This document shows positions 15,176 through 46,349 of a stretch of DNA of 64,000 nucleotides, piece after piece. The DNA is taken from NCBI GenBank assembly GCA_963817955.1, contig CAWFQK010000004.1, positions 1,440,001 through 1,504,000 of the forward strand, written 5' to 3'. The position numbers and the translations under genes were made by a program. The DNA is from an uncultured Gemmatimonadaceae bacterium (lineage in GTDB: Bacteria > Gemmatimonadota > Gemmatimonadetes > Gemmatimonadales > Gemmatimonadaceae). Each line of letters begins with the position of its first letter. Within the stretch, counting starts at the first letter, position 1. Below the pieces are notes generated by a model. That model did not search any database and had not been told where the DNA came from. It saw only the letters and a program-made list of their open reading frames with translations.

Positions 15176-15277
15176 CAGGCCGGCCCCGCGCACCTGACAG
15201 ATTCTCACCCCCCTCGGACATAGGTTCGGCCGCATAACGCAGTTGCAGCCGTTCTTCCGTGGCTTGCGGAGTACAGG

Positions 15278-16698: not shown

Positions 16699-16723
16699 CC
16701 CAACGGGAACAGAGGGGAGATTC

Positions 16724-17603: not shown

Positions 17604-17606
17604 GCC

Positions 17607-21357: not shown

Positions 21358-21507
21358 CTGTGTTCGGGCACCGAGCCGACTGGAGACGCGCGAGGGGGGC
21401 GCGATACTGATTCCACACACAGGCGTGTGGGGCAGTTGATGAACCGGCTTGGAACGGTCTGCGCGAGATCCGTGAGACCGATTCCCTGAATCTTGGGAGA
21501 GAGATAT

Positions 21508-22962
21508 ATGTCACGCCGTATTACTCGAGTCGCGCAATTCGGCGCACTCCTCGCTGCGTCGGTCGCGATCGCCGCATGCGTGAATGACAATGTGGTATAT
21601 CGCGACCGGGCGCTGACCGTATCGGCACCACCCGCGGGGGCTGGCTTCGTCGGCTACACCGACACGGCGACCAAGCAGACCGCCTGTGGCAATTGTCACG
21701 TCGAGCAGCAAGCGAAGTGGGCGACCACGAAGCACGCCAGCGCGTGGGCAGACCTGCAGGCCAGCGGCCATTCGAGCAGTGCCTGCGAATCTTGCCATGC
21801 AGTGAGTAACCTGGGCAATGGAGTCGCCGACTCGAACGTCGCGTACGCCGCCACGAAGGACACTCGGTATACCGACGTTCAGTGCGAGAACTGCCACGGT
21901 CCTGGCCAGCAACACGTATCGACTCCGGCTATCACAAACCGGCCGCTCGCGTCGATCCAGGTGGACACGGGGACGAAGGACATCAACGGCTGCGGCCAGT
22001 GCCACACTGGTACGCACGAGCCGTTCGTGGACGAATGGAAGCAGACGTTCGCGCAGGGACACGCGCACCTCGAAGCGCACGCGCTCACGAGCACCGATCC
22101 CACGTGCGTGACCTGTCACACCGGTCAGGGCGCGCTCCTCAAGTTCAACGTCAACACTGCGTATAAGGAGAAGGATCAGATCACGACGAACCCGGTGGCG
22201 ATCACCTGCGCCGTGTGTCACGATCCGCACGCAGCGACAGTCGGCAAACAGCTGCGCTTCGCCATTGACACTCCCGATCCGACGCGGAATCTGTGCATGC
22301 AGTGCCACAATCGCGATTCGGGCCCGAATCCAACCTCATCGCGTGGACCGATGACTCCGGAGACGGCGACGTTGCTCGGTACCGCCGGCTGGTGGCCGCC
22401 GAACCTCACGCTTGTCGACACGTCCGCCATTCTCGCGACGCACGGCTCGAGCTCGAACACCAGATTGTGCGCTACGTGCCACGTGGTCAGAACTGCGGTC
22501 AACGATCCGAAGACTGGCAGCTTCGTATTCCAGGCGACCGGACACAACTTTGCCGCAATTCCCTGCTTGGACGCGAACGGCAAGCCGACGACTGGTGACT
22601 GTGCCATCTCCCAGCGAACCTTCACGGCGTGTGCCGGCAGCGGTTGCCATGCATCGGACGTCGTCGGCCGGTCGCTGTATATCACCGACAGCCTACGCAT
22701 CGCGGCGCTCGAGACGACGCTGAGCGGCCAACTGGGCAAGGCTCCGGCGAGTTCGCTTAACTACACGAGCACCACGCTCACAACGGCTAAGGGTGCGACA
22801 TGGAATCTGCAGGTCGCACAGAAACCAGGCGCATGGATCCACAATCCATTCCTGATTGAGGCGCTCCTCACGGCCTCGATCAAGCAGATGACGCTGGACT
22901 ACGGGATCGCACCGAGCACCAGCATCTCACTCGACAACATTCTGCGTCGGCGGATTCGGTAA
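21508..22962 (+). CDS. Lipoprotein multiheme cytochrome c (8 CxxCH + 1 CX4CH)
   Basis: Lipobox IAAC. Motifs CGNCH, CESCH, CENCH, CGQCH, CVTCH, CAVCH, CMQCH, CATCH and CAGSGCH. C-terminal helical region with WIHNP. ATG 21508 after GGAGA. Confidence 0.92.
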   Translation: MSRRITRVAQFGALLAASVAIAACVNDNVVYRDRALTVSAPPAGAGFVGYTDTATKQTACGNCHVEQQAKWATTKHASAWADLQASGHSSSACESCHAVSNLGNGVADSNVAYAATKDTRYTDVQCENCHGPGQQHVSTPAITNRPLASIQVDTGTKDINGCGQCHTGTHEPFVDEWKQTFAQGHAHLEAHALTSTDPTCVTCHTGQGALLKFNVNTAYKEKDQITTNPVAITCAVCHDPHAATVGKQLRFAIDTPDPTRNLCMQCHNRDSGPNPTSSRGPMTPETATLLGTAGWWPPNLTLVDTSAILATHGSSSNTRLCATCHVVRTAVNDPKTGSFVFQATGHNFAAIPCLDANGKPTTGDCAISQRTFTACAGSGCHASDVVGRSLYITDSLRIAALETTLSGQLGKAPASSLNYTSTTLTTAKGATWNLQVAQKPGAWIHNPFLIEALLTASIKQMTLDYGIAPSTSISLDNILRRRIR

Positions 22963-22992
22963 CCGACGGGCGGTAGGTTGGATCAGCACGGG

Positions 22993-23037
22993 ACGTACGC
23001 GGGCCGGAGGTTACCAAACCTTCGGCCCGTGGTACGT
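22993..23037 (+). terminator. Strong hairpin after the lipoprotein cytochrome gene
   Basis: GCGGGCCGGAGGTT-ACCA-AACCTTCGGCCCGT (two G-U pairs), extended by ACGTAC/GTACGT. No U-tract, so it may be an mRNA-stabilising stem. Confidence 0.45.
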
Positions 23038-23350
23038 AGAGGACCGTTGGATGGCATACGCCGTTCGCGACAACCCCAGCCCGTGTGTGTCCGTCCGATG
23101 CCGATGGCCACCGTCCGTGATCCCGCACACGCCGCACAGAGTTCTCCGATGACGTCGCGCACCCACACGGTGTTATGTACATCTGCGAATATGGCGGGCG
23201 CTACTCTGGCGCCCACGCGCGACGGTCCCGCAGCCATTACAAGGCGACCGCCATCAGCGCGTTCCCTTTGCACCTGGCGGTCAGGTGATCGTGACACGAT
23301 ATATTGCGCGGGCACGCTCGATAGGCGCTGATCTTTGGGCCGCCTCGGCG

Positions 23351-24718
23351 ATGCTGGCATTCATCTTCGCGCTGCTCGCGGCGGCCGCGCCATTGTGGGC
23401 GCAGGGGCCGCGGCTGGTAGCATCACGCGGCGGCGTGCAGTGCCAGAAGTGCCACGCCAACCATGAGTTTCTGGTGGGCAAAGCAAGAACGGAGCGAGGC
23501 GACTCGGCGCTGTATGTGCCAGACACGCTCCTGCGCGACTCGCGCCATGCAAAACTCAGTTGCGCCGACTGCCACCCTGGCTATGACAAAGGGTATCCGC
23601 ACAACGCGACTGTCGTGGCCGTGCCCTGTCAAAGCTGCCACGAGAAGGAAGGCCTGGCATGGGCACGCTCGATCCATGCGCCGAACGCCAAGACTGTCGG
23701 CGACGCTCCGACGTGCGTGAGTTGCCACACGCAGCACCACGTGCTCGGCGTCGAGGACCCTCGCTCGCCCACGTACGCGCTGAACGTGGCCAAGACGTGC
23801 GGAAAGTGCCACAGTGACCGCCGAATCATCGGCACGTACTTCACGAAGGCGAAGGATGCGCAGGCGCGAACGGCAGTGGCGGAGTACTACAAGACGGTTC
23901 ATGGCATAGCGAGCACCAAGTCCGGCCTGGTGGTATCTGCGACGTGCAACGACTGTCATGACGCACATCTCATCCTTCCGCCCGATTCGTCCGAGTCCAC
24001 CATCAATCGCGCGCACGTGGCGGCAACGTGCGGCGCGTGCCACGCCGGTGTGCTCGCAACCTTCGACTCGTCTTCGCATGGGCGGGCGTTCGCCTCGGGC
24101 AAGAAGACCAACACCGGTCACGCGGCGCCGGTGTGCATCGACTGCCACGCTGGACACAAGATCGTGGCCGCTCGCGACTCGGTGTGGTTTCGGGGCGTAG
24201 TGGCCGAGTGCGGCTCATGTCACGAACGACTGACCAAGACTTACTTCGAGACATACCACGGCCAGGTGACTGAGCTTGGCTTTGGGCTCACGGCCAAGTG
24301 CAGTGATTGCCATACCGCGCACTCAATGCTCCCACCCACCGATCCACGGTCGTCGGTGAACGCGGCCAACCTCGTAGCGACGTGCAGCAAGTGCCACGCG
24401 GGCGCGAATGCCAAGTTCGTGCAGTACATGCCGCACGGCGATCCACAGAATCGCGCGAAGAACCCCGGGCTGTTCTGGGTCTGGTTGTTCATGACGTCGC
24501 TCCTGGTGGGAGTATTCTCGTTCTTCGGCCTCCACACATTCCTGTGGCTGATGCGCCTGACATTGGATCGGCTGCACGGGGGCGGTGCGGCCAAGCCTCC
24601 GGTAGCAGAGCCCGTGACGGAGAGTGGTGAGGAGCATGCCGGTGTTCGCGCACCAGAAACAACAATCGCCGGCACGAGGCGCGAGCCTATCGGGCCCGGA
24701 ACTCGGGAGAAGCAATGA
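23351..24718 (+). CDS. 11-heme periplasmic cytochrome c with C-terminal TM (CbcL-like c domain)
   Basis: Signal peptide APLWA-Q, 11 CxxCH, end CSKCHAGANAKFVQYMPH...FMTSLLVGVFSFFGLHTFLW resembles the CbcL junction. Start may be GTG 23285. Confidence 0.9.
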   Translation: MLAFIFALLAAAAPLWAQGPRLVASRGGVQCQKCHANHEFLVGKARTERGDSALYVPDTLLRDSRHAKLSCADCHPGYDKGYPHNATVVAVPCQSCHEKEGLAWARSIHAPNAKTVGDAPTCVSCHTQHHVLGVEDPRSPTYALNVAKTCGKCHSDRRIIGTYFTKAKDAQARTAVAEYYKTVHGIASTKSGLVVSATCNDCHDAHLILPPDSSESTINRAHVAATCGACHAGVLATFDSSSHGRAFASGKKTNTGHAAPVCIDCHAGHKIVAARDSVWFRGVVAECGSCHERLTKTYFETYHGQVTELGFGLTAKCSDCHTAHSMLPPTDPRSSVNAANLVATCSKCHAGANAKFVQYMPHGDPQNRAKNPGLFWVWLFMTSLLVGVFSFFGLHTFLWLMRLTLDRLHGGGAAKPPVAEPVTESGEEHAGVRAPETTIAGTRREPIGPGTREKQ

Positions 24719-25626
24719 GCAACGAGCCGTTCGTTACGGCGGCGACGGCGATTCCCGTCTCCGTGAGAGGTACCGAGGCCAAACCACTGGCTGTATCCGA
24801 CCAGGGCGCTGGGCCGTACATCCGCCGCTTCGGAGCGGTGGAGCGTACGACGCATGCGCTCGTGATGGTCTCGTTCTTCGGCCTCGTAATCACGGGCGTG
24901 CCCCTGCGCTTCGCATCTGCGCCCTGGGCCGTACCGCTCATGCAGTTCCTGGGGGGCGCAGCCGCAGCAGCGGTTCTGCACCGGTTTTGCGCCGTGATCA
25001 CGTTCGGTTACTTCGGGCTGCATCTGGGCATGGTCGTCAAGAATTTCATGCGCGCCGAGAGCAAGTTGTCGATCTTCTGGGGCCCTCGCTCAATGGTGCC
25101 GCAGCCGAAGGACATTCGAGACGTCATCGGCATGTTCCGCTGGTTCATCCGCGGCGGAGTCCGTCCGAAGTTCGACCGCTACAGTTACATGGAAAAGTTC
25201 GACTATTGGGCCGTGTTCTGGGGTGTCGGAATCATCGGCGGTTCAGGCCTGCTGCTCTGGTTCCCGACATTCTTCTCGCATGTTCTGCCCGGGTGGGCGT
25301 TCAACGTTGCGACGATCGTTCACGGCGACGAAGCACTGCTCGCGCTTGGCTTCATCTTCACGATCCATTTCTTCAACGTTCACTTCCGACCCGAGAAATT
25401 CCCGATCGACCTGGTGATCTTTACCGGCCGCGCACGGGCGGAGTACTTCGAGGAAGAGCATCCGCTGGAATACGAGCGAGAACTGCACTCCGGCCGGTTG
25501 GCCGCATTGCAGACATCGGCCCCATCGCGATCGACGTACCTCTGGTCGATGGCGTTCGGATTCGCGGCCCTTGCGCTGGGCGTGTTCCTGGTTGGCCTGG
25601 TCATCTACGCAGTGTTGAGAGGATGA
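24715..25626 (+). CDS. Di-heme cytochrome b (FdnI/HydC-type; CbcL-like b domain)
   Basis: THALVMVSF, LHRFCA, YMEKFDYWAVFWG, IVHGDEALLALGFIFTIHFFNVHFRPEKFPID. Own RBS and ATGA overlap. Confidence 0.92.
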   Translation: MSNEPFVTAATAIPVSVRGTEAKPLAVSDQGAGPYIRRFGAVERTTHALVMVSFFGLVITGVPLRFASAPWAVPLMQFLGGAAAAAVLHRFCAVITFGYFGLHLGMVVKNFMRAESKLSIFWGPRSMVPQPKDIRDVIGMFRWFIRGGVRPKFDRYSYMEKFDYWAVFWGVGIIGGSGLLLWFPTFFSHVLPGWAFNVATIVHGDEALLALGFIFTIHFFNVHFRPEKFPIDLVIFTGRARAEYFEEEHPLEYERELHSGRLAALQTSAPSRSTYLWSMAFGFAALALGVFLVGLVIYAVLRG

Positions 25627-27095
25627 ACGCGTTTCGGCGCGGCGTAGCCGGCGGCCTGTTCGTCAGGCTCGCCCGCGCCGTTGCCGTCGGCTTGCTCGTT
25701 GGCATCAGCGGAAGCGCACTCACGAGCTGTTCTTCCAGCGCGCCGCCGCCTCGAGCGACGCGCGACACCACGGCGCATGTCGCAGTGTTGCAGGGCAGCG
25801 ACCGGGACGCGCCCACGCGTGTGCTGAGCACCGAATGTACGGATTGCCATCCGCATACGCATGACGCCGTGCTCGGCCGCGGCCCGTCAGCATCAGCACG
25901 GTGTGGCGCGTGCCACGCGTCCGTCCACGACACGATCCAGGCGCTGTACGCTGGCCTGACGCGCCGCGCCGCAGTGCGGCCCGATCCCATGTTCGTGGCG
26001 CGCGTTCAGTGCGCCGAGTGCCATTCTGATACGACGCTGGCCATGCGTGCCGGCGCCGCGCGACTGGCAGCCGTCGATCGCGCGTGTACGAGCTGTCACG
26101 GCCCCAAGTTCGTGGGCATGCTCCCGCGATGGAGCACGGGAATGCAGTGGCGTACCCGCGCCGTATCGGAATACGTGAATCGTGCTGCGGCCGACCCGCG
26201 GCTCACCACGGCCCCATCTGCCCGCGCACGCATCCAGGCTGCGAAACAGACAGTGATCCTGGTGACGACCGCCGGCGCTCTGCACAACGTGCGCGGTGCC
26301 GATGCCCTGCTCCGTAGCGCACTCGATAGCGCAGCGGCCGCGTACACCGGCCCCGGCCTGGCCGTGCCGGAGCGTCCGACGCTCGGTCCCGATCCCGCAC
26401 GCGTCTCGTGTGTCGGGTGCCACTATGGCATAGAGGGCGCTCGCGATTCTGTGTTCGGTCAGCCCTTCGATCACAGTGCGCATGTGTTGCGTGGCAACGT
26501 GGCATGCAATGCATGCCATAGCGCTGTCGACTATATCGTGCCCGGCAAGCACGAGGTGGACAAACGACACGGCAGGACGATGGTCACGCCTGCGTCGTGC
26601 AACGCATGCCACCACAATGCGACGTCCGCCGTGGCGTGCAGCACGTGTCACGCGGGCGATGCGCGGCTCGCACGCGCAATCCGCGTGGCAATGCCGCTGC
26701 GCCTCCGCCCGCCGAACGCGCCGACGTCTCGCGACGTGGCGTTCGAGCATCGTGACCATGCGAAGGTAGAGTGCGCGAGCTGCCATACCGCGCGCACGGC
26801 GGTGCGCACCACCGCGGCGTGCGCGACCTGTCATCAGACCCATCATGTCGCGGTAGCGCAGTGCATGAAGTGCCATGGGTCGGACATGCACGCGGCGCAC
26901 AAGGCTGCGGACCACCTGGCGTGCACCAATTGCCACGCCCGCGAGACCCTGGCACTGCTCACCCCCGACCGCAGCTTCTGCGTGAGCTGCCACGCGGATC
27001 GCGCCGCACACAAGGGCGGCCGCGAGTGCTCGGCGTGTCACATGCAAAGCACGCCGTCAGAGCTGCGCAAGAGAATTCTCAGCGGAACGCGCTGA
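25623..27095 (+). CDS. Lipoprotein 14-heme cytochrome c
   Basis: ATG 25623 overlaps the cytochrome b stop. Lipobox LTSC, 14 CxxCH, internal helical segment with GALHN. Confidence 0.92.
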   Translation: MNAFRRGVAGGLFVRLARAVAVGLLVGISGSALTSCSSSAPPPRATRDTTAHVAVLQGSDRDAPTRVLSTECTDCHPHTHDAVLGRGPSASARCGACHASVHDTIQALYAGLTRRAAVRPDPMFVARVQCAECHSDTTLAMRAGAARLAAVDRACTSCHGPKFVGMLPRWSTGMQWRTRAVSEYVNRAAADPRLTTAPSARARIQAAKQTVILVTTAGALHNVRGADALLRSALDSAAAAYTGPGLAVPERPTLGPDPARVSCVGCHYGIEGARDSVFGQPFDHSAHVLRGNVACNACHSAVDYIVPGKHEVDKRHGRTMVTPASCNACHHNATSAVACSTCHAGDARLARAIRVAMPLRLRPPNAPTSRDVAFEHRDHAKVECASCHTARTAVRTTAACATCHQTHHVAVAQCMKCHGSDMHAAHKAADHLACTNCHARETLALLTPDRSFCVSCHADRAAHKGGRECSACHMQSTPSELRKRILSGTR

Positions 27096-27105
27096 TCGCG
27101 GGCAC

Positions 27106-28899
27106 ATGGGACTATTCTCCAAGGATCTCGTTCTCCTGCATCCGCCGTCAGTCTACGACTTCCGGCGGAACGGCACGTTGTTCGGCCCAATCAGCGACGT
27201 CATTCCATCCACGCCGGTGTTCGAGATGTATCCGATGGGTTTCACCACCATCGCCGCGCATCTCGAGAACGCGGGCTTCAACGTGGAGATCGTCAACATC
27301 GCGTACCGGATGTTGTCGGACGCCACATACGACGCCGAAGCTGCGATTGCCGCCTTGCATCCGCGCATCTTCGGCATTGATCTCCACTGGCTGCCGCACG
27401 CGCATGGCGCGCTGGAACTGGCGCGCATCGTCAAGAAGCACCACCCTGGGACGCCCGTCGTCATGGGCGGCCTGTCCGCGTCGTACTTCCACGAGGAGCT
27501 CGTCCGGTATCCCTGGGTCGATTACGTACTGCGCGGCGACTCGACTGAGGAGCCGATCCTCCAGCTGATGCAGGCGCTGCAAAGCGGCGACCCACCGACG
27601 GCGGTGCCGAACCTCACGTGGATCGACGCGCGCGGAGAGGTGGTGGTGAACCCGCTCACCCACGTGCCGGACGACATCGACGACATCGCCATCCCGAATT
27701 ACCGGTACGCGATTCGGTCGGTCTTCAAGTACGCGAGTCTGGCGAACGTCATTCCCTTCGTCGATTGGATGAGCTATCCGATAACCGGGCTCCTGACGTC
27801 GCGAGGGTGTTCGTTGGACTGCTCCATCTGTGGCGGGTCGCGGAGCGCGTACCGCACCATGTGCAACCGCCGGCGGCCGGCATTCCGCTCGCCGGAAGCC
27901 CTGATCCGCGACATCCGGCAGATCCGGGAATTCAGCGACGCGCCGATCATCCTGCTGAACGATATCCGCCATGGCGGCCGGGCCTATAGCGAACGTTTCC
28001 TCGATTTGCTGGAGCGCGAGCGCGCGCCGAACGAGATCATCTTCGAGTTGTTCTGGCCGGCGGACGACGCGTTCTTCGAGCGTGTCGCCCGAGCGTCGCC
28101 GCGGTTCAGCCTCGAGATGACGCCGGAGAGTCCAGACGAGGGGCTGCGACGCATCAACGGCAAGTTTGCGTGCACGAACGCGGAGATCGAGGACACCGTG
28201 GCGGCTGCGCTTCGCCATGGCGTGAATCGGATTGACATCTTCTTCATGGTCGGTATCCCCCGCCAGACCTATCTGCAGGCGGTCGGCGCCGTCGACTACT
28301 GCCGCGAGCTACTCGAGAAGTTCGCCGGTGACCACCGCCTGGCATTCTTCGTAGCTCCTCTCGGCCCGTTCCTCGATCCGGCGAGCCGGGCATTCGAGCA
28401 TCCAGAACAGTTCGGCTATCGACTCATTCACCGCACGCTCGAAGAGCATAGACGCGCGCTCACATCGCCGAGCTGGAAATACCTGCTGAACTATGAGATG
28501 GAGACGATGAGCCGTGACGACATCGTGGATGCGACGTACGAGTCGGCGCTACGGCTTGCTCGGCTCAAGCGCGACTACGGCTATATGGACGACGCCACGT
28601 GCGCCGAGCTCTCGGCGCGCATCGAGGCATCGCGCCACGCAATCGCCGAGGTGGACTGCATTCTCGCTCTGCCAGAAGGCGAGAACCGCGAGGATCGCCT
28701 CGCAGCCGTGCGCGCACGTTTCGCGGACTTGCCCGCGCAGACGGTGGCCGTGAAGCAGGAGCTCTTGCGCTGGCCAACCCCCGGGGGGTTCGCCAGCTCG
28801 GTGCGGCTGGCGCAGCTGGGCGCGCGGCTCATGCGCACAGAAGTCTATCTGTTCTCGAAGCGTGTGCGGCGGCTGTGGGCCGCACACGCCGATCCGTGA
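27106..28899 (+). CDS. Cobalamin-binding radical SAM protein (TIGR04190/Ta0216-like from recall)
   Basis: N-terminus DLVLLHPPSVYDFR...FEMYPMG, B12-domain GIDLHWLPHAHG / VMGGLSAS, CxxxCxxC in RGCSLDCSIC. Confidence 0.88.
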   Translation: MGLFSKDLVLLHPPSVYDFRRNGTLFGPISDVIPSTPVFEMYPMGFTTIAAHLENAGFNVEIVNIAYRMLSDATYDAEAAIAALHPRIFGIDLHWLPHAHGALELARIVKKHHPGTPVVMGGLSASYFHEELVRYPWVDYVLRGDSTEEPILQLMQALQSGDPPTAVPNLTWIDARGEVVVNPLTHVPDDIDDIAIPNYRYAIRSVFKYASLANVIPFVDWMSYPITGLLTSRGCSLDCSICGGSRSAYRTMCNRRRPAFRSPEALIRDIRQIREFSDAPIILLNDIRHGGRAYSERFLDLLERERAPNEIIFELFWPADDAFFERVARASPRFSLEMTPESPDEGLRRINGKFACTNAEIEDTVAAALRHGVNRIDIFFMVGIPRQTYLQAVGAVDYCRELLEKFAGDHRLAFFVAPLGPFLDPASRAFEHPEQFGYRLIHRTLEEHRRALTSPSWKYLLNYEMETMSRDDIVDATYESALRLARLKRDYGYMDDATCAELSARIEASRHAIAEVDCILALPEGENREDRLAAVRARFADLPAQTVAVKQELLRWPTPGGFASSVRLAQLGARLMRTEVYLFSKRVRRLWAAHADP

Positions 28900-28903
28900 A
28901 CCT

Positions 28904-30916
28904 CTAACCTCCTACATGCGCCACCACTGCCGCCTTTGCGTTCCCCATCGGCGGCACTTTGTGGCACGACTCGCACGCACGACCAGGCTTGTGGTTCGTC
29001 TGCGCTACGTGGCACGTCGTGCACACCTGCCGCGACCAGTGATCCACGGCTGGCACTGACTTGTGACACTGAACGCACGCGACGTGATCGGTCGCCTTGT
29101 GCTTTGCCAGTGAGCCGCCACGATGACAGCTGAGGCATGCCGCCTGGGGCTGGTGGTGCTGCGCATGGCAGTTGTCGCAGTTCAGCGCACGCGCGCTCAT
29201 GGCCGGCGCCGTGTGGCACGCGCTGCATGCGACCTTGGCGGCGAGATGGGAGGCGTGCGTGAAGTCACCAGCGGGCGCGTGCAGCGTGTCGACCGGAACG
29301 CCCCCTGGGCCGGCATGGCACTGCGCACAGTTGCGCGCCTGCGCCTGCACGGACGGATGGTGGCACGCGTCGCAACTCGCCGCTGACTTGATCGTCGTGC
29401 CGCCGTGATCGGCGAATGACGTGTGACAGCCACTGCACTGGAGCCCGGCACGCAACACATGCTGCGAGTGATCGAACGACCGGCCGTCCAAGATGCCGCG
29501 CTGCTGCTCCACGCCCATGTGGCACTGCAGACATTCGTTATCGCTCACCGGCGGCCCCAGATTCACCACCGGCATGCGATACGACAGGTGCGTGTCGTCC
29601 GCCGCTTGGCGCACGAGCTCGAGCGAGCTCCGCAGCAACCCGTCGGCGTAGCTGATATTGTGCACGCCTTTGCCCGCGCGCACGAGCGCAATGTTCTCCG
29701 CCGCCATTCCGAGCAGGCTGTCGGCGACGGCGCGCTGGTTCAACGGCAACGCCACCGCCGCAGCGCGCGCTTGCTGCATGACAGGCTCCACCAGATTCAG
29801 CTTCCGATCCATCGCGCGCTGCCAGCTCGGAAGCATGTTTGCGTAGCGGACGCCGTGGCAAGACAGACAGGCGGACTCGTTCGCGACCTGCACCGTGCCG
29901 TGACCGGGCTTTCGAGACGCGTCGTTGTGGCATCCCACGCAGGAGACGCGGGCCTTGTACATCGAGCTCGGCCCCTTCTGCGTGAGATGTCCGCCGGTCC
30001 CGGCGTAGAGCTTCTGCTGCGCGACATGCGTGTTCTGATGGCAGCTCTTGCAGTCCAGCTCCACCGTGGTCGAGACGGAAATGATCCGGTGATCGATCCC
30101 GGTGTGGCATTGGACACACGCGATGTTCTCCTGCCCCACGTGCACTTTGTGCAGCATGGGCGAGTCCGTGATGCGCGCCAGTCGAGCGGGTTCGTTGTGG
30201 CAGGTGACACACCGGGCCGCATCCACGTTACCGGTGCCCTGGGTGACTTCGTTGTGGCATGACAGGCAGTCGATCCGATCCTTGACGTACTGCGGATGAT
30301 CGACGACGAAGCCCTCTTTGGAGTTGACCCGCGGCGGCGCGGGATGGCAGCCGGTGCAGGTGGCAAGCGGCTGGCCGTTGGGACGCCCCTTGAAGTGGCA
30401 GAGGACACAGGTGTTCTCGGTGACGGCAATGTGCGAGCCCTGCACGATCTGCGAGTGACAACTGGTGCAGTGCAGCTCAATGCCGCGACGCACCTGCCCG
30501 AGGTGACGTGTATGGTCAAAGCGTACTCCTTTGTAATCCACCTGCCCCTCGATGAGCCGCGTCGAGTGGCAGCCCGAACGGAGGCACGCCGCGTCATCCA
30601 TCTTCGCCCAGGGGCGAGTGTTGGCAGTACCAGTGAAGTACTTCACCACCATGTTCGCGGCCTGCACCTTGGTCATCGCCTCGGCTTTGATGCCCGGGGC
30701 GATGTGGCACTTGATACAGGCCACATCGCGATGCGTCGACTTCGTCCACGAGTCATGGTACGGCTTCATGATGTGGCAGCTACCGCAGAACCACGGTTGG
30801 CTGGACACCTGAACGAACGCGGTTGTGCTGACAGCAAGCAGGATGATGCCGAGGATGACTACAGGAACCGCGATGCGCGCAGCTCGCGACACCCGCCTAC
30901 GGGCTGTGGGCGACAT
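28904..30916 (-). CDS. Membrane-anchored 22-heme cytochrome c with NapC/NrfH-like N-terminus
   Basis: N-terminal TM, first motif CGSCHIM (CxxCHxM), 21 CxxCH plus CLRSGCH, internal GKGVHN helical segment. Confidence 0.92.
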   Translation of the reverse strand: MSPTARRRVSRAARIAVPVVILGIILLAVSTTAFVQVSSQPWFCGSCHIMKPYHDSWTKSTHRDVACIKCHIAPGIKAEAMTKVQAANMVVKYFTGTANTRPWAKMDDAACLRSGCHSTRLIEGQVDYKGVRFDHTRHLGQVRRGIELHCTSCHSQIVQGSHIAVTENTCVLCHFKGRPNGQPLATCTGCHPAPPRVNSKEGFVVDHPQYVKDRIDCLSCHNEVTQGTGNVDAARCVTCHNEPARLARITDSPMLHKVHVGQENIACVQCHTGIDHRIISVSTTVELDCKSCHQNTHVAQQKLYAGTGGHLTQKGPSSMYKARVSCVGCHNDASRKPGHGTVQVANESACLSCHGVRYANMLPSWQRAMDRKLNLVEPVMQQARAAAVALPLNQRAVADSLLGMAAENIALVRAGKGVHNISYADGLLRSSLELVRQAADDTHLSYRMPVVNLGPPVSDNECLQCHMGVEQQRGILDGRSFDHSQHVLRAGLQCSGCHTSFADHGGTTIKSAASCDACHHPSVQAQARNCAQCHAGPGGVPVDTLHAPAGDFTHASHLAAKVACSACHTAPAMSARALNCDNCHAQHHQPQAACLSCHRGGSLAKHKATDHVACVQCHKSVPAVDHWSRQVCTTCHVAQTNHKPGRACESCHKVPPMGNAKAAVVAHVGG

Positions 30917-30919: not shown

Positions 30920-32218
30920 TTATGGCTCCTCGTTCCCGGCGCCGCGGCGAAGCGCTCGCAGCGTGAGCCACGCCAGCGCGACCGCCGCCAACGAGAGGAA
31001 CCATACGGGGAGCAGCAGCAGCTTGTGCTCCAACAGCACCTCCTCGCTTGCGGCCGACATGCGATCGAGCTCGATCGATGCCGCGCTCACGCGACTCTCC
31101 TGGTTCTCAACGCGCTCGAGATCGAGCCCGTGCTGCACCTGTGCGATCTGTAGGTAGTCAGTGAGTGCCGACTGGTAACGGAAGCGCGCGTCGCTCGTGC
31201 GCTGCCCCGAAACCGCAAGACGGTCCACGGCGCGCTCGGCCGACCGCAGGTCCGAGGTCGCCTGCATCATGCGACGCTGCAGGTCTACACCGACCTGGTG
31301 TAGCTTCGTGTCGCGAGCGTGGCACCGGTCGCACATCGCGGAGATGCTGTCGTCAGCAATACGCTGCGTGCCGTGGTTCCCGTGGCACGCCAGGCACCCT
31401 TGGATCCGCCCCGCGCGCGTGGCGGGCCCGTGCGGCCCAGCATTGAATGCCTGTGCCACGAGCTGGTGGCAACTGCCGCAGACGCTCGACACCTCGGTGC
31501 GCGTGGGCGGCAGCGCCGAATGCGCACCGTGGCAAGCTACGCACGTTGGGGCGGCAAAGTCCCGCTTCTCGAACAATGTCTTGCCGTGCGCGCTGTTGCG
31601 GAACTGGTCGAGCTGGTCGGTACGCAAGTTGTACTTCTGCATCAGCCGCGTGTTGGCATGGCAGTGCCCGCACGTGGTTGGGATGTTGGTCGGATACACG
31701 CGACTGCGCGCATCGTACGGCGGATAGATGATGTGCGTGCCATGACAATCGGTGCACGTTGGTGCATCGACGTTGTTCCCCGCGAACAGAAGCTGCCCGT
31801 GGCGGCTGGTGCGGAACTCCGCGAGCTGGCCGGTGGGCAACCCATACTCGCGCATCCTATTTGGATCAGAGTGGCATGAGCCGCACAGCCGTGCAACAGC
31901 TACCTTGTTCAGCGCGCCGGTGAAGCCGTTGCCGTGCGCCGCGGGAAGGAGGCGTGCAGAAGGATCGCCGCCGTGGCAGTCGACACAGCGCACGCCGTGC
32001 TCAGAGTGCACGCCGACGTCGGCGGCCTCCCGTTGGGCCGCGTGACAGACCAGGCAATTATTGCCCGCGTTCGCCTCGGGCGTCTGCCAAACCGTAGTCG
32101 GTGCCGGGACCGCCGCCGCTGTGTGCATGGCCTGAGGCGCGGCTTGTGCCGGCACGAGGCTCGCGGCAAGCACGAGAGCGGTAGCGCCAAGGAGGCGAGT
32201 GATCGTGGCGCGCATCAT
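30920..32218 (-). CDS. 9-heme cytochrome c with C-terminal membrane anchor
   Basis: ATG 32218 overlaps the cytochrome b stop. Signal peptide, 9 CxxCH, coiled coil and C-terminal TM. Confidence 0.92.
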   Translation of the reverse strand: MMRATITRLLGATALVLAASLVPAQAAPQAMHTAAAVPAPTTVWQTPEANAGNNCLVCHAAQREAADVGVHSEHGVRCVDCHGGDPSARLLPAAHGNGFTGALNKVAVARLCGSCHSDPNRMREYGLPTGQLAEFRTSRHGQLLFAGNNVDAPTCTDCHGTHIIYPPYDARSRVYPTNIPTTCGHCHANTRLMQKYNLRTDQLDQFRNSAHGKTLFEKRDFAAPTCVACHGAHSALPPTRTEVSSVCGSCHQLVAQAFNAGPHGPATRAGRIQGCLACHGNHGTQRIADDSISAMCDRCHARDTKLHQVGVDLQRRMMQATSDLRSAERAVDRLAVSGQRTSDARFRYQSALTDYLQIAQVQHGLDLERVENQESRVSAASIELDRMSAASEEVLLEHKLLLLPVWFLSLAAVALAWLTLRALRRGAGNEEP

Positions 32219-33450
32219 CGTGACGTTGGAGCGGCAACGACCGTGTCGACGGGCGCCGCCGGCGTATATACCGGAGTGAGCTCGCTGGCAGTGGAGACGG
32301 AGCGCAGATGCCACCCCGCGGCCCACGCCAACGCGAAGCCGAAGAAGAACGCGAAACCAAAACCCGCAACGAGCGGATGGCGTCGCAGTTGCCGGTCAGG
32401 AGCACGATCGAACACGGGAAGAACCACGAGCGCGACACCCAGCAGTACGAACACGCCGAAGCCCCATGCGCCGAGATAATGAAGCAGCGCGCGTGAGACG
32501 TCGGCAACGAACCACGTGGCATGCAACGCCGTGGGCGGATGGGCCGGGTCGGCCGGAGGAGCGATTTCGCGCGGCCACAGCACGGCAGCCGTGACTACGA
32601 CGGCGACGACGAGCACGCCCACGCTCATGGAGCGCAAGAGGTGGTGCGGGAAGAATGGCACGCCCTCGCGATCACGATCTGCCGCTGGTGTCACGCCATC
32701 GCGCACCACAGGCGCGAGGCCGTGCTTGCGCAGCAGCGTGAAGTGCAGCATCAGGAGCCCGAGCGCGGCCCACGGCAGCAGAATCACGTGGATCGCGAAG
32801 AACCGGCTCAGCGTAGCGCCCGAAACCAGCGGATCGCCGCGAAGCAGTTCGGCCAGCCAGCCACCAATGAGCGGCACGCGACTGATGACATCCACACCCT
32901 GCGTGGTGGTCCAGTACGCCCACTGGTCCCACGGCAGCAGATAACCGGTGGCGCCAAATCCCAATATGACGAGTAGCAGCAGCAGTCCGACGAGCCAGTT
33001 CGTCTCGCGCGGTGGCTTGTACGCGCGGCCGAAGAACACGCGCGCCATGTGCGCCAGCACGGCCACGACGATCAGGTTCGCACTCCACCGATGCAGATCG
33101 CGCATCAGCCATCCGAACGAAATGCCGGAGACGATGTGCTGAATGCTCTGGTACGCCTCTTCGGCCGATGGCCGGTAGTAGAACGAGAGGAGCACCCCCG
33201 TGGCGACGAGAATGATGAACAGCAGGTACGTGACTCCGCCGAACGCCTGGCGCCAGCCGACGTGGCGCGGAACCCGGTTGGCCAAGGCTTTACGAAATGC
33301 CTCGCCAATTGGTAGTTGGGTGTCGATGGGGCCATAGAGCAGGCCCACGAAGCGCAGCAGCCCGAGCAGGCTTGCATCGGTGCTCGCCTTGATGTCGGGC
33401 CAAAGACGCTGAGTCCAAATCCGAGCGATGCCGCTTTCGGAGTCTGCCAT
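32215..33450 (-). CDS. Cytochrome b of Rieske/cytb family (fused b6+IV type), PEWY motif degenerate
   Basis: RDLHRWSAN...HMARVFF, RETNWLVG, GYLLPWDQ, RFFAIH-x14-H. The expected PEWY position reads ATWF. Confidence 0.92.
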   Translation of the reverse strand: MADSESGIARIWTQRLWPDIKASTDASLLGLLRFVGLLYGPIDTQLPIGEAFRKALANRVPRHVGWRQAFGGVTYLLFIILVATGVLLSFYYRPSAEEAYQSIQHIVSGISFGWLMRDLHRWSANLIVVAVLAHMARVFFGRAYKPPRETNWLVGLLLLLVILGFGATGYLLPWDQWAYWTTTQGVDVISRVPLIGGWLAELLRGDPLVSGATLSRFFAIHVILLPWAALGLLMLHFTLLRKHGLAPVVRDGVTPAADRDREGVPFFPHHLLRSMSVGVLVVAVVVTAAVLWPREIAPPADPAHPPTALHATWFVADVSRALLHYLGAWGFGVFVLLGVALVVLPVFDRAPDRQLRRHPLVAGFGFAFFFGFALAWAAGWHLRSVSTASELTPVYTPAAPVDTVVAAPTSR

Positions 33451-33451
33451 G

Positions 33452-33922
33452 TCAGGGCCTCCCTACGTAGACGGCGCCATCGCGCACGAACGTGGAGTAA
33501 CGCTTCAGCGGCACCGTCGTGAGCCCGCGTACCACGTTGCCGTGCAGATCGTAGACGAGGTAGCCGCAGGCGGAGGCTACGCGCATCGACGTGGCATCCC
33601 AGTGCAAGATGCAGCCGTCGTTCGGCGCCGTGCCCTGGAGCGCCGTGTAGGTGGTCGAGTCCGCGCGAACCACAAGAATCACCTGGTCCCCCCAGCGAAC
33701 AATGCGGCTGCTTCCTACGGGCAGGCTCGTCTCAGGTGCCACGCGGAACGCGGGCTGGAGTTCGGGGAGCTGGAGCTGTTCGGGCGGCAGCAGGTAGACG
33801 AAGACGGCGAGGAGCGCGCCCATCAACATGAGTGAGAGAACTCCGCCGAGCAGGTATTCACCAAAGCCCGGCGTCCATGTCCGGGACGCAGGGATCGGCT
33901 CGGTTGTGTCAGGCATCACCAC
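33452..33922 (-). CDS. Rieske-fold protein lacking [2Fe-2S] ligands
   Basis: TM anchor, then YTALQGTAPNDGCILHWD...VASACGYLVYDLHGNVVRG...PL, aligning without gaps to Rieske boxes CxHxGC and CPCHG. Directly upstream of cytochrome b. GGAGG RBS. Confidence 0.85.
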   Translation of the reverse strand: MVMPDTTEPIPASRTWTPGFGEYLLGGVLSLMLMGALLAVFVYLLPPEQLQLPELQPAFRVAPETSLPVGSSRIVRWGDQVILVVRADSTTYTALQGTAPNDGCILHWDATSMRVASACGYLVYDLHGNVVRGLTTVPLKRYSTFVRDGAVYVGRP

Positions 33923-34167: not shown

Positions 34168-35751
34168 TTACTTCGAGAGCGGATCGGTGATGTGGCAGGT
34201 CAGGCACATGATCTTGTTACGGGCTGACATCCGACTCGCGTCGAAATTCTGTCCGTGCGGGTTCACCTTCAACCCGGTGCTTGCATGACAGCGCAGGCAA
34301 TCACGCTGCTGGTGACAGGTGGTGCAGCCGGTCATTCCTTGCCGCGCTGCTTGACCATGCTGTAGGAGCCAGAGCGGCTGCCCGGTGTGCACGGCACCTG
34401 TACGTGCTCCGCTCACGGTAATATTCGTCTTTTCATGGCACGAACGACAGAACGTCTCGGTGCGATGACAGGACGTACAGTTCTGGTCTTGCCCATACGC
34501 CACCGCCGCGTGCCGAGCAACGAAGTCGAGCGCATGATAGCGCTTGGAACCAGACCCCTCGTGACAGGTGGTACATTGGCGCTGCTCGTGACATCCCAGA
34601 CAGTCTAGCCGGCCGCTCGCTGCCGTCGACTTGTGCTGCGTCGCGAATCCCGCGGGATGCACTTTCGAGCCGGACCCCTCGTGACACGTCGCACATTGGC
34701 GCTGCTCGTGACATCCCAGGCAATCGACACGACCGCTCGCTGCCACCGACTTGTGCTGCATCGCGAATCCCAGAGGATGCGCCTTCACCAAAATCGTATC
34801 CCCGTGCGTCGCGCCGCGCGCGGGTAACCGAGCAAACGTCAGTCCGGTGTCAACACGCGCGACTCGCAACACGACACCCGGCGCCACTCCCGGCGCCGGC
34901 ATCGGAAGCCGTGCGATGACTGCGGCCGCGTTTGACCCTCTGTGACAGGACTGACAGCTCGGCTGCGTGTGGCAGTTGGCACAGCCCTCCGCTTGCTTTG
35001 ACGCAATGGTTCCGTGGTCGGCAGACCATGTCTCGCTCCGATGATTCACCGGGGTTGAATACGAGGCAGCTTTCCCCTTCATCAACTGAGCCACCCGCGA
35101 GTCGCTTCCCAACGCGCCGATCGCGGGAACGCGCGCCGCGTTCGGATGGCAGCGCGCGCAGCTCTCGCGAGCATGACACGTGGCGCAGCGCTCGACATCC
35201 GCGCTGGTTCGCGGCGCGTGCGCTGAGGCAAAATCCGCGCGTCCGTGCGATGTGGGTTTCGGGAAGGTCGCGATCGCGCTCGCGGGCAATGCGCGCGCCT
35301 CTGTTAGCGGGACATGGCACGTCTTGCATATCGCACTCTCTGCAAGATGTTCCGGTGCCTCATGGCAAGAGAGGCATACAGTGGGCGCTGCGCGCCGCAC
35401 CTGCATCCAACCCGCCTGCTTGTTTTCGGCATGACAACTCTGACACACTGCCGACGTTCCCTTCGCCTGGGGGTCCCGCGGATGCTCAACGTGTGCAAAC
35501 CGCAGGTTCGTCGGCTGCGGGGTGGCGCCCGACCATGTCGTGACCGCCACATCCCGGCCGTTATGGCACTGGGCGCACGTACTAGGCGCGGGCATCGCCG
35601 TGGTCGCGTCACCCGAGAGAATGCCCGCGTGGCACCCCGCGCAGTCCGGAAAGAGCTTCGCATGTTGCGCGTGCGGAAATCCCGATGACCGCTGCGCGTG
35701 CAAGGCCCCTGTCGACAGAAGCGCGATACCCAGCCAAGCGCCGATTCTCAT
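34168..35751 (-). CDS. 18-heme periplasmic cytochrome c (porin partner)
   Basis: Signal peptide ALHA-Q, 18 CxxCH, six paired CxxCH-x4/5-CxxCH modules. 4-bp overlap with the porin gene. Confidence 0.93.
   Translation of the reverse strand: MRIGAWLGIALLSTGALHAQRSSGFPHAQHAKLFPDCAGCHAGILSGDATTAMPAPSTCAQCHNGRDVAVTTWSGATPQPTNLRFAHVEHPRDPQAKGTSAVCQSCHAENKQAGWMQVRRAAPTVCLSCHEAPEHLAESAICKTCHVPLTEARALPASAIATFPKPTSHGRADFASAHAPRTSADVERCATCHARESCARCHPNAARVPAIGALGSDSRVAQLMKGKAASYSTPVNHRSETWSADHGTIASKQAEGCANCHTQPSCQSCHRGSNAAAVIARLPMPAPGVAPGVVLRVARVDTGLTFARLPARGATHGDTILVKAHPLGFAMQHKSVAASGRVDCLGCHEQRQCATCHEGSGSKVHPAGFATQHKSTAASGRLDCLGCHEQRQCTTCHEGSGSKRYHALDFVARHAAVAYGQDQNCTSCHRTETFCRSCHEKTNITVSGARTGAVHTGQPLWLLQHGQAARQGMTGCTTCHQQRDCLRCHASTGLKVNPHGQNFDASRMSARNKIMCLTCHITDPLSK
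34541..34780 (-). repeat. 120-bp intragenic tandem duplication (two-heme module)
   Basis: HPLGFAMQHKSVAASGRVDCLGCHEQRQCATCHEGSGSKV versus HPAGFATQHKSTAASGRLDCLGCHEQRQCTTCHEGSGSKR. The repeat is visible at DNA level with period 120. Confidence 0.93.
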
Positions 35752-37214
35752 TGGATCCTCAATGCGCCGGGGCTACCAAGCGTCCACTCGAGCCGCACCG
35801 TGCCGCGCCGTTGATTCCAATTCACTAACTGTGGCGCGTCGCTGCCTGTGTGATGATACAGCAGCATATCGGCTACGAGGCGCAAATCGGGGAACAGGCG
35901 CACCGCAGCCTCTCCGCCTCCACCGACCACCCGGCCCGAACCGATCTGGAATTCATAGATGTTCTGAAAGGCCAATCCGTGGAGTGCGAGCGACAGGCCA
36001 TCGCTTGGCGCCCAACGCAGCGCAACGTCTTCATCGCTGGTCGACGCGCCGAAATCGATATCGGCGTTGTAGCTCCCCTGGACCGACCATGCGTTGGACG
36101 CCCGGAAGGAGCCGGTTGCGCCAACGCGCCAGCCGCTCGCGCGGAGCGGCAGGAACGCGACGCCACTCTGCGTGTCATCGTACGACCGTCGCCCGCCCGA
36201 TGCACCCAGGCTCACGCGAGCATCGCTGCTCGCCCAATCCAGGTTGCCGGAGACTTCTTTGTAGCCCACGGGAGCAAATGCGCCCCAGATCGTCCAGAGA
36301 TCGAAGTAGGGCGCGTAATGGCGTGCCTCGATCCGCGCCGTCGCCGATCGCGGCAGCACGAAGCGGAGCGCCAGAGAGAGATCGTTGAAGGTGCCGGTCG
36401 CCAGGTCGCGCGTGAGCTCGCCCGACAACGTGCTCTTCCCGGCATGCAGTTCGCCATCGGCGGCGACCCGCTCGGAATAGAGTCCGGCGCGATCTCGACG
36501 GATCTCGCGTTGGTACTGCACGCGGAACGCGCCGAGTGCATTGGGACGAAGCTGCGCCGTTGCCCCGATCACGTACGCACCATCGGTCGGCGGAAGATCT
36601 TCGACTGGCGCGAGCACACTAGCGTCGAGCGGTCGATTGAGCCCAGACACGAGGGTGCCACCACCATACACTTCGGCAGATACGCTACTCATCGGCCGCA
36701 GGAGCACCGATCCACCATCGAAGTTGAAGACGCCGAGCGACGAGGTGATCCACTGGCGGCCAAGCCTCGCACGCGCTCGGGAGCGGTCCATCTCGATGTA
36801 GGCATCGAGCGCATCGAACGTCTGCGTCGCTTGTGGCCACAGGTCGCGCGCATCGCCCGCTGCTCCGCGCGCCCGCAGTTGCGCGTGCACGCTGATTCCC
36901 TCACCGAAGCCCCAGCCCGTGACGTCAAGATCCTGGGTCATGGCGACGAGGGCGTTCCTGGACGCTGACCGAAGGAACGTGCAGTACTGGTTCAGCGCAT
37001 CGCATCGCGCGAGTATGCCGGACGTCGTGCGGCGATATACGCCGTACGCCGAATCCGTCGATGCATAGGCAATGCTATCGAGCACGAGCGGCTGCAGCTC
37101 GATGTATTGAGCCGAGCTGGCCCCCCTGATGACGACGCCCTGCGCCGCCGCCCTGCTCGCCGTCACGGCAACGAGGGCGGCCGTGAGGGCGATTCCTGCA
37201 ATATGGCGCCTCAT
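35748..37214 (-). CDS. Putative outer-membrane beta-barrel porin of a porin-cytochrome pair
   Basis: Signal peptide, many amphipathic strands with aromatic girdle (RARLGRQWI, FRVQYQRE, WSVQGSY, TVRLEWTL). Translationally coupled to the 18-heme cytochrome. Confidence 0.78.
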   Translation of the reverse strand: MRRHIAGIALTAALVAVTASRAAAQGVVIRGASSAQYIELQPLVLDSIAYASTDSAYGVYRRTTSGILARCDALNQYCTFLRSASRNALVAMTQDLDVTGWGFGEGISVHAQLRARGAAGDARDLWPQATQTFDALDAYIEMDRSRARARLGRQWITSSLGVFNFDGGSVLLRPMSSVSAEVYGGGTLVSGLNRPLDASVLAPVEDLPPTDGAYVIGATAQLRPNALGAFRVQYQREIRRDRAGLYSERVAADGELHAGKSTLSGELTRDLATGTFNDLSLALRFVLPRSATARIEARHYAPYFDLWTIWGAFAPVGYKEVSGNLDWASSDARVSLGASGGRRSYDDTQSGVAFLPLRASGWRVGATGSFRASNAWSVQGSYNADIDFGASTSDEDVALRWAPSDGLSLALHGLAFQNIYEFQIGSGRVVGGGGEAAVRLFPDLRLVADMLLYHHTGSDAPQLVNWNQRRGTVRLEWTLGSPGALRIQ

Positions 37215-38710: not shown

Positions 38711-38867
38711 CGGCAGTGTCCGAAAACATGCCTTCGCAAATCAGTCTTATGCGTCTACTGGGCGGTGCCCATCGCAACAATTGTACACGGCACGCGTGAA
38801 CGCCGTAGCCAGCCTCGCACACCCTTTAGGTGGTGCGGCAATCCACGCCCAGTCAGGAGTCCGTTCC

Positions 38868-40058: not shown

Positions 40059-40060
40059 CC

Positions 40061-46322: not shown

Positions 46323-46349
46323 TCGCATCTACCGACCAGGAGGCGTCAC

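Follow-up and report, generated by a model that had tools for sequence, protein, structure and literature searches.

Organization of the locus

The window analysed here, a stretch of 64 kb (G+C 61-67%) on contig CAWFQK010000004.1 of an uncultured Gemmatimonadaceae bacterium, encodes on its minus strand a Rieske-like protein and a cytochrome b that have lost, together, the ligands of the [2Fe-2S] cluster and the PEWY motif of the quinol-oxidation (Qo) site. It is the combination of the Rieske cluster with cytochrome b that defines Rieske/cytochrome b complexes, and bifurcation at the Qo site is the basis on which they conserve energy. The two genes belong to a co-oriented string which reads 488-aa predicted barrel protein, 18-haem cytochrome, Rieske-like protein, cytochrome b, 9-haem cytochrome and 21-haem cytochrome (Table 1); the last four are referred to below as the module. 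The TGA of the Rieske-like gene and the ATG of the cytochrome b gene are 1 nt apart, the TGA of the cytochrome b gene overlaps the ATG of the 9-haem gene as ATGA, and a gap of 245 nt lies between the 18-haem gene and the Rieske-like gene. The initial annotation of the sequence had described the Rieske-like and cytochrome b genes as intact and coupled, and this description holds.

The window proteins were compared with the best 120 homologues of the Rieske-like protein (58-100% identity), the best 120 homologues of the cytochrome b and the loci recovered by a scan of GTDB species genomes, in which 140 stretches matched, 95 encode a relative and 80 loci were retained for analysis. According to the record titles, 76 of the 80 loci belong to Gemmatimonadota or a subgroup of it, two to an 'uncultured bacterium', one to Steroidobacteraceae and one to Akkermansiaceae. 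A deeper search among 1.84 billion representatives returned 188 proteins at E ≤ 0.001. The Steroidobacteraceae (L043) and Akkermansiaceae (L079) metagenome-assembled genomes (MAGs) carry the module on contigs of 7.2 kb and 32 kb, respectively; since these contigs are short and their proteins are typical of the Gemmatimonadota family, mis-binning seems more likely than transfer.

The Rieske-like subunit

The Rieske-like protein consists of an N-terminal transmembrane helix (about residues 20-44) followed by a periplasmic Rieske domain. A Pfam scan assigned the window protein to no family at E 0.01. A phmmer search of the PDB matched it to the soluble domain of the Chlorobaculum tepidum Rieske protein (8hn2_A, E 7.6e-12) and, more weakly, to b6f Rieske subunits. 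In the alignment with 8hn2_A, the ligands Cys/His/Cys/His of the two cluster-binding boxes are replaced by Ala/Asn/Ser/Gly, the disulfide cysteines Cys104 and Cys119 are retained with 14 residues between them, and RGLTTVPL takes the place of SGPQPLPL. The loss of all four ligands, the survival of the disulfide pair at its usual spacing and the change of the GPxP loop to GLTT, all of which had been read from the window by the initial annotation, are thus confirmed on a structural template.

An AlphaFold2 model of the protein, built on 36 family sequences, has a mean predicted local distance difference test score (pLDDT) of 91.5 and presents one transmembrane helix and then a β domain. When the model was searched against the PDB with Foldseek, 8hn2_A ranked first, with a TM-score of 0.81 on the target and a root-mean-square deviation of 1.2 Å over 96 columns, followed by other Rieske proteins that include the domain of Kuenenia Kuste4569 (9rk4_A, rank 6) and b6f subunits. 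A chance resemblance to Rieske proteins is ruled out by this fold match, and the predicted structure confirms with confidence a Rieske fold despite the loss of the cluster.

The cluster-free state is a property of the whole family. The pattern xxxxGC-12-xxCxx is found in 118 of the 120 homologues, all of which are without the four ligands, with P0083 and P0095 falling outside the pattern; Cys104 and Cys119 are invariant in the family alignment. The Rieske-like genes of the 80 loci are ligand-free without exception. Box 1 conforms to [AS][PS]x[DE]GC in 118/120 homologues and in 79/80 loci, the remaining locus (L016) having SPSDEC, and box 2 to SxCx[YHF...], which in L016 is SPCTY. Among the 1.84 billion representatives, the nearest 13, complete or partial, in which both boxes are readable (within P0241-P0254) are also ligand-free, and canonical CxH...CxCH sequences appear from about 33% identity downward. 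The best-conserved segments of the protein are the three loops that would surround the cluster in a canonical Rieske protein, [AS]PxDGCxLxW, RVxSPCxY and YDLHGNVVRGLTTVPL, together with the linker after the transmembrane helix. A replacement metal site in the Rieske tip is unlikely, because the family shows free variation at two of the four positions that once held ligands.

Canonical Rieske genes of the same loci carry a twin-arginine translocation (Tat) motif, GRRAFLKW or SRRRFVDW. No such motif (RRx-hydrophobic-hydrophobic) is present in any of the 109 members of the cluster-free family with a readable N-terminus, and the absence noted initially for the window protein therefore extends to its relatives. 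Some source annotations call these genes 'ubiquinol-cytochrome c reductase iron-sulfur subunit', a name which the sequence contradicts.

The cytochrome b subunit

The cytochrome b of the window is a single unsplit chain whose N-terminal half is b6-like; the protein matches cyanobacterial cytochrome b6 (7r0w_I) with an E value of 2.9e-54. Its haem ligands His120, His134, His221 and His236 are invariant in 120/120 homologues, and all four are present wherever the cytochrome b is complete in the 76 loci whose PEWY column can be read (L045, L054, L057 and L059 stop short of it). Of the 120 homologues, 118 retain the cd loop GYLLPWDQ. The initial annotation had credited the protein with four haem histidines and this loop, and both are upheld within a firm assignment to the cytochrome b family (Table 1).

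At the position of the Qo motif the protein reads ATWF. A separate search with the C-terminal 165 residues only placed ATWF on PEWY in all five printed alignments, which are to bc1 cytochromes b or b6f subunit IV; the matches are individually weak (E 0.003-0.013) and the position of the motif is identical in each, so that a misalignment is ruled out and the replacement lies exactly where it had initially been reported. PEWY occurs in none of the 120 cytochrome b homologues and in none of the 76 readable loci. The column reads [STA][TSNF]W[IVLFPA] in every one of them, with the tryptophan as the only survivor, and it is followed by the newly fixed residues W-x-V-[AV]-D-V-S. The Qo motif variants given in the available text of a survey are PEWY, PDWY, PVWY, APWY, PDWF, PPWF and GPWF, none of which resembles STW[IV]; the same text mentions one branch of cytochromes b without a Rieske protein (PMC4122944).

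Two further features distinguish the subunit. The position of the haem ci cysteine is occupied by alanine, which excludes haem ci. In addition, an N-terminal extension of about 45 aa (residues 1-45) contains the invariant residues D19, S23, T24, D25, R33, G36, L37, Y39 and G40; it is missing from canonical Gemmatimonadota cytochromes b, and would sit on the cytoplasmic side near the quinone-reduction (Qi) region. In two long-read MAGs (L052, 5581-8646; L055, 5973-8574), the module's cytochrome b sequence is broken up among several frames, which is probably a homopolymer assembly error and not a real disruption.

Selection, phylogeny and canonical paralogues

The ratio of nonsynonymous to synonymous substitution rates (dN/dS, Nei-Gojobori) was used as a measure of selection. 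Among the pairs listed, the eight closest give 0.05-0.27 for the Rieske-like gene and 0.06-0.19 for the cytochrome b gene, and the four listed pairs per gene that involve the window give 0.17-0.23 at dS of about 0.9-1.1. The medians over all pairs with dS < 1.5 are 0.31 and 0.26, respectively, and are inflated by saturation. The low ratios of the close pairs indicate purifying selection on both genes.

A maximum-likelihood tree (quick search, unrooted) was computed from 85 Rieske sequences. In it, all 22 sampled cluster-free sequences form one clade with a Shimodaira-Hasegawa-like approximate likelihood ratio (SH-aLRT) support of 99 and a long stem, apart from the canonical Rieske proteins of Gemmatimonadota, which fall into two clades; the domain is short, and the tree leaves the sister group undecided. 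A family of Rieske homologues of about 216 aa (P0257, P0265, P0279, P0292 and P0374, with P0266, P0267 and P0295) also forms one clade with an SH-aLRT of 99. In five of these eight proteins Tyr or Phe takes the place of the first His ligand (CTY, CSY or CTF for CTH), and box 2 is CxCH, once CPCC.

Canonical Rieske genes were found by motif scan in 14 of the 80 loci, and L067 has a different Rieske-type motif. In L028, L042, L048, L053, L059 and L065, the canonical Rieske gene is followed by a PEWY cytochrome b frame of 370-379 residues, and the pair sits a few kb (about 2-3 kb) upstream of the cluster-free pair; that of L048 was confirmed by Pfam. Neither a canonical Rieske motif nor a PEWY cytochrome b was detected by the motif scan in the 64 kb of the window. 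Compared with the canonical pair of L048, the window cytochrome b has 40% identity over 275 residues, with the similarity stopping at the former PEWY site, and the Rieske-like protein has 26% identity. Judged by its sequence, the cluster-free pair is a diverged, specialised paralogue. A PEWY cytochrome b as partner of the cluster-free Rieske protein was considered and rejected, since the alignment assigns those cytochromes to the separate canonical pairs. Because canonical pairs coexist with it in relatives, the cluster-free pair is not their sole bc-type complex. The initial annotation had counted a canonical pair that supplies the Qo site as evidence against a repurposed complex; such pairs do exist near the module in relatives, and we read them as paralogues, with none in the window itself.

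The loss of the ligands and the loss of PEWY are completely associated, a co-variation that the initial annotation had proposed to test: there are 76 cluster-free/non-PEWY pairs, 6 canonical/PEWY pairs and no mixed pair. This association amounts to a single evolutionary event and not to repeated ones. Cytochromes b of Gemmatimonadetes are placed among groups A1/A2 near the green clade in the accessible part of a published phylogeny (PMC3509893).

Multihaem neighbours

Among the 67 loci with at least 3.3 kb of sequence downstream, the ordered core of Rieske-like, cytochrome b, 9-haem and 21-haem genes is conserved in 66, the exception being L031; the multihaem neighbours pointed out in the initial annotation are therefore a constant part of the family. 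The third core gene encodes exactly 9 CxxCH motifs in 67/67 complete homologues, and its product ends in a hydrophobic segment in 65/67. Cytochrome c1 and cytochrome f likewise have a C-terminal anchor.

The head of the 21-haem cytochrome matches PF03264 with 37.7 bits (cut-off 24.1) and the NCBIfam NrfH model with E 2.6e-13; since its 50 bits do not reach the equivalog cut-off of 134, the NrfH assignment holds at family level only. Residues 15-83 align with Desulfovibrio NrfH (2j7a_C, E 1.9e-5), with FCGSCHIM on FCTSCHIM, and the N-terminal transmembrane helix together with CxxCHxM is found in 66/66 homologues. K83 is invariant and aligns with the last aligned lysine of NrfH, which we take to belong to the quinol site of that protein. 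In NrfH, haem 1 lies at the surface of the membrane beside the quinol site, and NrfH-family proteins oxidise quinol alone, without a cytochrome b. To judge from its sequence, this head would give the operon a second, independent quinone-reactive module, which the initial annotation had not noticed.

The 18-haem cytochrome upstream of the core has Pfam matches to multihaem and MtrC/MtrF-like domains. The 488-aa barrel protein has no Pfam or NCBIfam match, and in the ESM Atlas it falls only with unnamed Gemmatimonadota clusters. Its Foldseek matches are outer-membrane barrels only, at TM-scores of 0.44 or below, with MtrB (6r2q_B) at rank 35 and 0.40. A barrel homologue is found in 27 of the 80 loci, many of which end earlier, and in 20 of these it is directly followed by an 18-haem homologue. 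In locus L018, a co-oriented string begins with 8-haem, Rieske-like, cytochrome b, 9-haem and 21-haem genes and continues with a C-terminally anchored multihaem cytochrome, a b561-type cytochrome, a barrel, a 16-haem cytochrome and a canonical Rieske protein, the last confirmed by Pfam; stop and start codons overlap at several of its junctions.

On the plus strand of the window lies a companion cluster of further multihaem cytochromes and a b561/FdnI-like cytochrome b (Table 1), whose genes have their equivalents within the co-oriented string of L018, and the window also carries Ccm genes for cytochrome c maturation. The 11-haem member of the companion cluster is NapC/NirT-like, and its stop overlaps the start of the b561/FdnI-like gene (23285-25626, plus strand). 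In L048 the NapC/NirT-like and b561 parts are fused in two proteins with 11 and 19 haems (15166-17205 and 17362-20262), an arrangement that recalls Geobacter CbcL. A complete [NiFe] uptake hydrogenase is encoded at 38781-48828 (plus strand), with small and large subunits, a cytochrome b and HycI, HypA, HypF, HypC and HypE-like proteins; hydrogenase subunits adjoin the module also in L004, L007, L020, L054, L058 and L060.

Table 1. Features of the window, with the cluster-free Rieske/cytochrome b pair first
Feature	Positions	Strand	Description
Cluster-free Rieske-fold subunit	33452..33922	-	156 aa (154 aa from ATG at 33916)
Former cluster box 1, APNDGC	33611..33628	-	Residues 99-104; aligns with CTHLGC of 8hn2_A (CxHxGC)
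Former cluster box 2, SACGY	33560..33574	-	Residues 117-121; aligns with CPCHG of 8hn2_A
Cytochrome b	32215..33450	-	411 aa, unsplit, 7 hydrophobic helices; PF00033 E 4.7e-50
ATWF in place of the Qo motif PEWY	32509..32520	-	Cytochrome b residues 311-314
9-haem c-type cytochrome	30920..32218	-	9 CxxCH, signal peptide, C-terminal hydrophobic anchor; Pfam multihaem families
21-haem c-type cytochrome	28904..30916	-	670 aa; N-terminal transmembrane helix and NrfH/NapC-type head (CGSCHIM)
18-haem c-type cytochrome	34168..35751	-	527 aa, signal peptide; ATG overlaps barrel stop; 18 CxxCH
Predicted outer-membrane β-barrel	35748..37214	-	488 aa; model pLDDT 79.5, signal helix and about 26 strands
Companion cluster	21493..27095	+	8-haem 21493-22962; 11-haem 23285-24718; b561/FdnI-like dihaem cytochrome b 24715-25626; 14-haem 25623-27095; assigned by Pfam, NCBIfam and haem motif counts

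Comparison with known systems

The module resembles the 'green' Rieske/cytochrome b complexes, that is b6f and the Chlorobi bc complex (8hn2_A, 7r0w_I), in many respects. Common to both are the Rieske fold with its transmembrane helix and disulfide pair, a 7-helix cytochrome b with four haem histidines and the LPWDQ cd loop, and a gene order in which cytochrome b follows the Rieske protein and a C-terminally anchored c-type cytochrome comes next. Unlike the green complexes, the module has no [2Fe-2S] ligands, no Tat motif, neither PEWY nor any of the listed variants and no haem ci cysteine; its cytochrome b is unsplit and carries the N-terminal extension, and its c subunits bring 9 + 21 haems instead of one.

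The Rieske-like protein also calls to mind the NirD-type Rieske_2 family (PF13806). Nitrite-reductase small subunits (3c0d_C, 4aiv) stand at Foldseek ranks 45 and 49, the L048 homologue reaches PF13806 with 28.6 bits against a cut-off of 27 (the window protein has no Pfam match), and some source annotations read 'nitrite reductase/ring-hydroxylating ferredoxin subunit'. NirD-type proteins are soluble partners of NirB, and their Rieske folds often have no cluster ligands. The protein of the module differs from them in being membrane-anchored and periplasm-facing, in having a cytochrome b always next to it, and in its closest match, which is a bc-type Rieske protein. With NrfH, NapC and CymA the 21-haem subunit shares the N-terminal transmembrane helix and CxxCHxM; in contrast to those proteins, it joins the head to 17 additional haems and is encoded alongside a cytochrome b of the bc type.

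The overall layout of the locus has a counterpart in the Geobacter cluster extHIJKLMNOPQS (GSU2930-2940), described in the available text as comprising the Rieske protein ExtO, the cytochrome b ExtP, ExtQ, the multihaem cytochromes ExtM, ExtN, ExtS and ExtKL and the porin-like ExtI (PMC5877670, PMC2825233). ExtP (NF040969) is the best NCBIfam match of the module cytochrome b (E 3.1e-66), with 223.1 bits and hence below the equivalog cut-off of 290; the C-terminal match to ExtQ (NF040970) is weak (19.4 versus 150). As far as the published description extends, one cluster combines in both systems a core of the bc type with several multihaem cytochromes and a barrel of the outer membrane, and the Geobacter system is set apart by the split of ExtP and ExtQ and, by description, by ExtO, which is presented as a Rieske Fe-S protein. 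In the profile scans, the barrel of the module has no family match to ExtI, with which no direct comparison was made. Anammox bacteria (Kuenenia) likewise possess Rieske/cytochrome b complexes with multihaem cytochromes that bear transmembrane segments, and share with the module a Rieske/cytochrome b core with membrane-anchored multihaem subunits; their Rieske proteins, for which crystal structures are described, bind [2Fe-2S] clusters (PMC12954380).

Outside the bc family, the 11-haem and b561 pair of the companion cluster is similar to Geobacter CbcL and CbcBA in combining a dihaem b with a multihaem c (bioRxiv 10.1101/2021.04.15.440034). In the accessible text of that work CbcB and CbcL are b cytochromes of the HydC/FdnI type and not of the bc type, and CbcBA was for that reason rejected as a homologue of the module cytochrome b. 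In the MtrAB and Pcc porin-cytochrome conduits an outer-membrane barrel sheathes a multihaem cytochrome encoded beside it. The locus has a gene for a predicted barrel that overlaps an 18-haem gene, a pair which recurs in 20 loci; the similarity to MtrB is as given above, with no family match. The literature compared also includes PMC5600118 and PMC5317091, each in the part available. The literature searched, which did not extend to subscription journals and supplements, yielded no account of a bc-type complex with a cluster-free Rieske subunit.

A proposed mechanism and its alternatives

Because the cluster has been lost, classical Rieske-dependent bifurcation at the Qo site is impossible under the established Q-cycle mechanism. 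The retention of the b haems, together with the anchored multihaem subunits and the NrfH-type head, fits a linear oxidoreductase best, and the Ccm genes, the hydrogenase and the linked pair of barrel and cytochrome suggest a chain that spans the envelope. From the observed sequence state, fold, conservation, selection and synteny we infer a four-protein assembly, its electron path and direction and its physiological partner, as follows. The Rieske-like protein, cytochrome b, 9-haem and 21-haem cytochromes would form one inner-membrane complex that descends from a b6f-type ancestor and has given up the [2Fe-2S] cluster and classical Qo chemistry, so that no electron bifurcation would take place. 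Electrons would instead be exchanged linearly between the membrane quinone pool and about 30 periplasmic c-type haems. The two b haems may serve as a transmembrane wire to or from a quinone site on the negative (N) side of the membrane, or the NrfH-like head may provide a quinol site on the positive (P) side, or both. The cofactor-free Rieske domain, presumably inserted into the membrane without the Tat route and stabilised by its disulfide, may have been retained at the P-side face of cytochrome b, where it would serve for docking or shaping. The barrel, the 16-18-haem cytochrome and the b561/multihaem pair could link quinones to an extracellular or periplasmic partner, e.g. metal oxides, and the adjoining uptake hydrogenase is a possible electron donor. 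Taken in full, a non-bifurcating quinone:multihaem-cytochrome oxidoreductase in an envelope-spanning electron chain is the best explanation that we can offer, and we rate its chances as slightly better than even.

Several points weigh against it. All 80 loci are MAGs, and all sequences are metagenome-assembled. Given the NrfH-type head on the 21-haem subunit, the cytochrome b need not oxidise quinol at all. The direct path from b haem to c haem which the proposal supposes is hypothetical. The conserved ex-cluster loops and cd loop point to a P-side interface that is still in use rather than to a passive remnant, and such loop conservation would suit a P-side site that is active no less than a scaffold that is passive. 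The barrel pair is found in only 27/80 loci (many end early) and shows no match to a known conduit family. Finally, the loss of the PEWY glutamate alone leaves canonical enzymes active, according to the available text of PMC4122944.

How the invariant NrfH/NapC-type signature is to be read bears directly on the alternatives. With a complete head in place and both hallmarks of Qo catalysis gone, the head might carry out all the quinol chemistry, leaving the cytochrome b and the Rieske-like protein as a redox-inert or electron-storing platform on which the multihaem subunits are anchored and arranged. The cytochrome b is hardly what one would expect of a passive anchor, however: its haem histidines are invariant in all 120 homologues and in every complete copy among the loci, its additional N-side extension is strongly conserved, and it is constrained as tightly as the Rieske-like gene. 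We consider a pure platform unlikely on these grounds, if still worth keeping in view. The same head can also be taken the other way, as the source of a c haem (its haem 1, or a membrane-proximal haem of the 9-haem subunit) that replaces the [2Fe-2S] cluster as first acceptor, held by the cluster-free Rieske fold at a rebuilt P-side pocket, in which case a Q-cycle-like partition of the two quinol electrons, one path leading to haem c and the other to haem bL, would persist without an Fe-S centre. The three ex-cluster loops and the cd loop of cytochrome b, which are among the most conserved segments, the residues W-x-V-[AV]-D-V-S fixed after the former PEWY, the retention of both b haems and the constant presence of a head with CxxCHxM and invariant K83 are in line with such a substitution. 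It has to contend with the fact that the proline and glutamate of the Qo motif survive in no member, that bifurcation requires an acceptor that is gated and of high potential, properties not obviously offered by a fixed haem, and that NrfH-family proteins manage quinol oxidation without a cytochrome b; we regard it as improbable. Were it true, the module would be a natural Rieske/cytochrome b complex with a c haem doing the job of the cluster.

The cluster could also be provided in trans, if a canonical Rieske protein, alone or in a canonical Rieske/cytochrome b complex, were encoded at another place and worked together with the cluster-free pair. Candidates for this are the Tat-bearing canonical Rieske genes in 14/80 loci, six of them with a PEWY cytochrome b upstream of the module; yet each of these six has its own PEWY cytochrome b directly after it, the Qo motif of the family itself is lost as well, the window contains neither a PEWY cytochrome b nor a canonical Rieske motif, and the docking site would be filled by the Rieske-like subunit. 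Supply in trans is in our estimate very unlikely. That the genes are degenerating remnants of a bc complex might be supposed from the loss of every catalytic hallmark, and simple decay had been named in the initial annotation as a refuting outcome. It is ruled out by the low dN/dS of close pairs and the conserved synteny; moreover, the reading frames of the window are intact, the state is fixed across 80 loci and the new residues are invariant across the family, so that we attach almost no probability to it. The repurposed, non-bifurcating complex that the initial annotation envisaged accordingly stands in so far as the losses are real, concordant, old and under selection, whereas its details, a scaffolding Rieske fold and b haems as the wire, are complicated by the NrfH-type head and the conserved loops.

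Gemmatimonadota are abundant in soils and sediments, and their physiology is poorly understood. A phylum-wide lineage under selection that keeps both proteins but has parted jointly with cluster, Tat route and Qo motif constitutes a natural experiment on the capabilities of the remaining machinery. It could show how a Q-cycle enzyme turns into a linear quinone-to-cytochrome wire, or whether a haem is able to replace the cluster, and it would point to envelope-spanning electron transfer in Gemmatimonadota.

Further genes around the module

Several other genes recur in the vicinity. V/A-type ATPase genes are found near the module both in the window (6184-13995, minus strand) and in L018 (3-5812). 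A B12-binding radical SAM protein (TIGR04190, 683 bits) is encoded at 27106-28899 on the plus strand, convergent with the 21-haem gene; homologues with 62-79% identity are present in L001, L007, L010, L012, L014, L025, L026, L036 and L045, and in some of these nine loci the gene stands directly beside the Rieske-like gene. Upstream of the canonical pair of L048 (370-5170) there are genes for a 4Fe-4S dicluster protein, an NrfD-type membrane protein and two class I cytochromes with 4 CxxCH, which by their sequences look like a further quinone-reactive complex.

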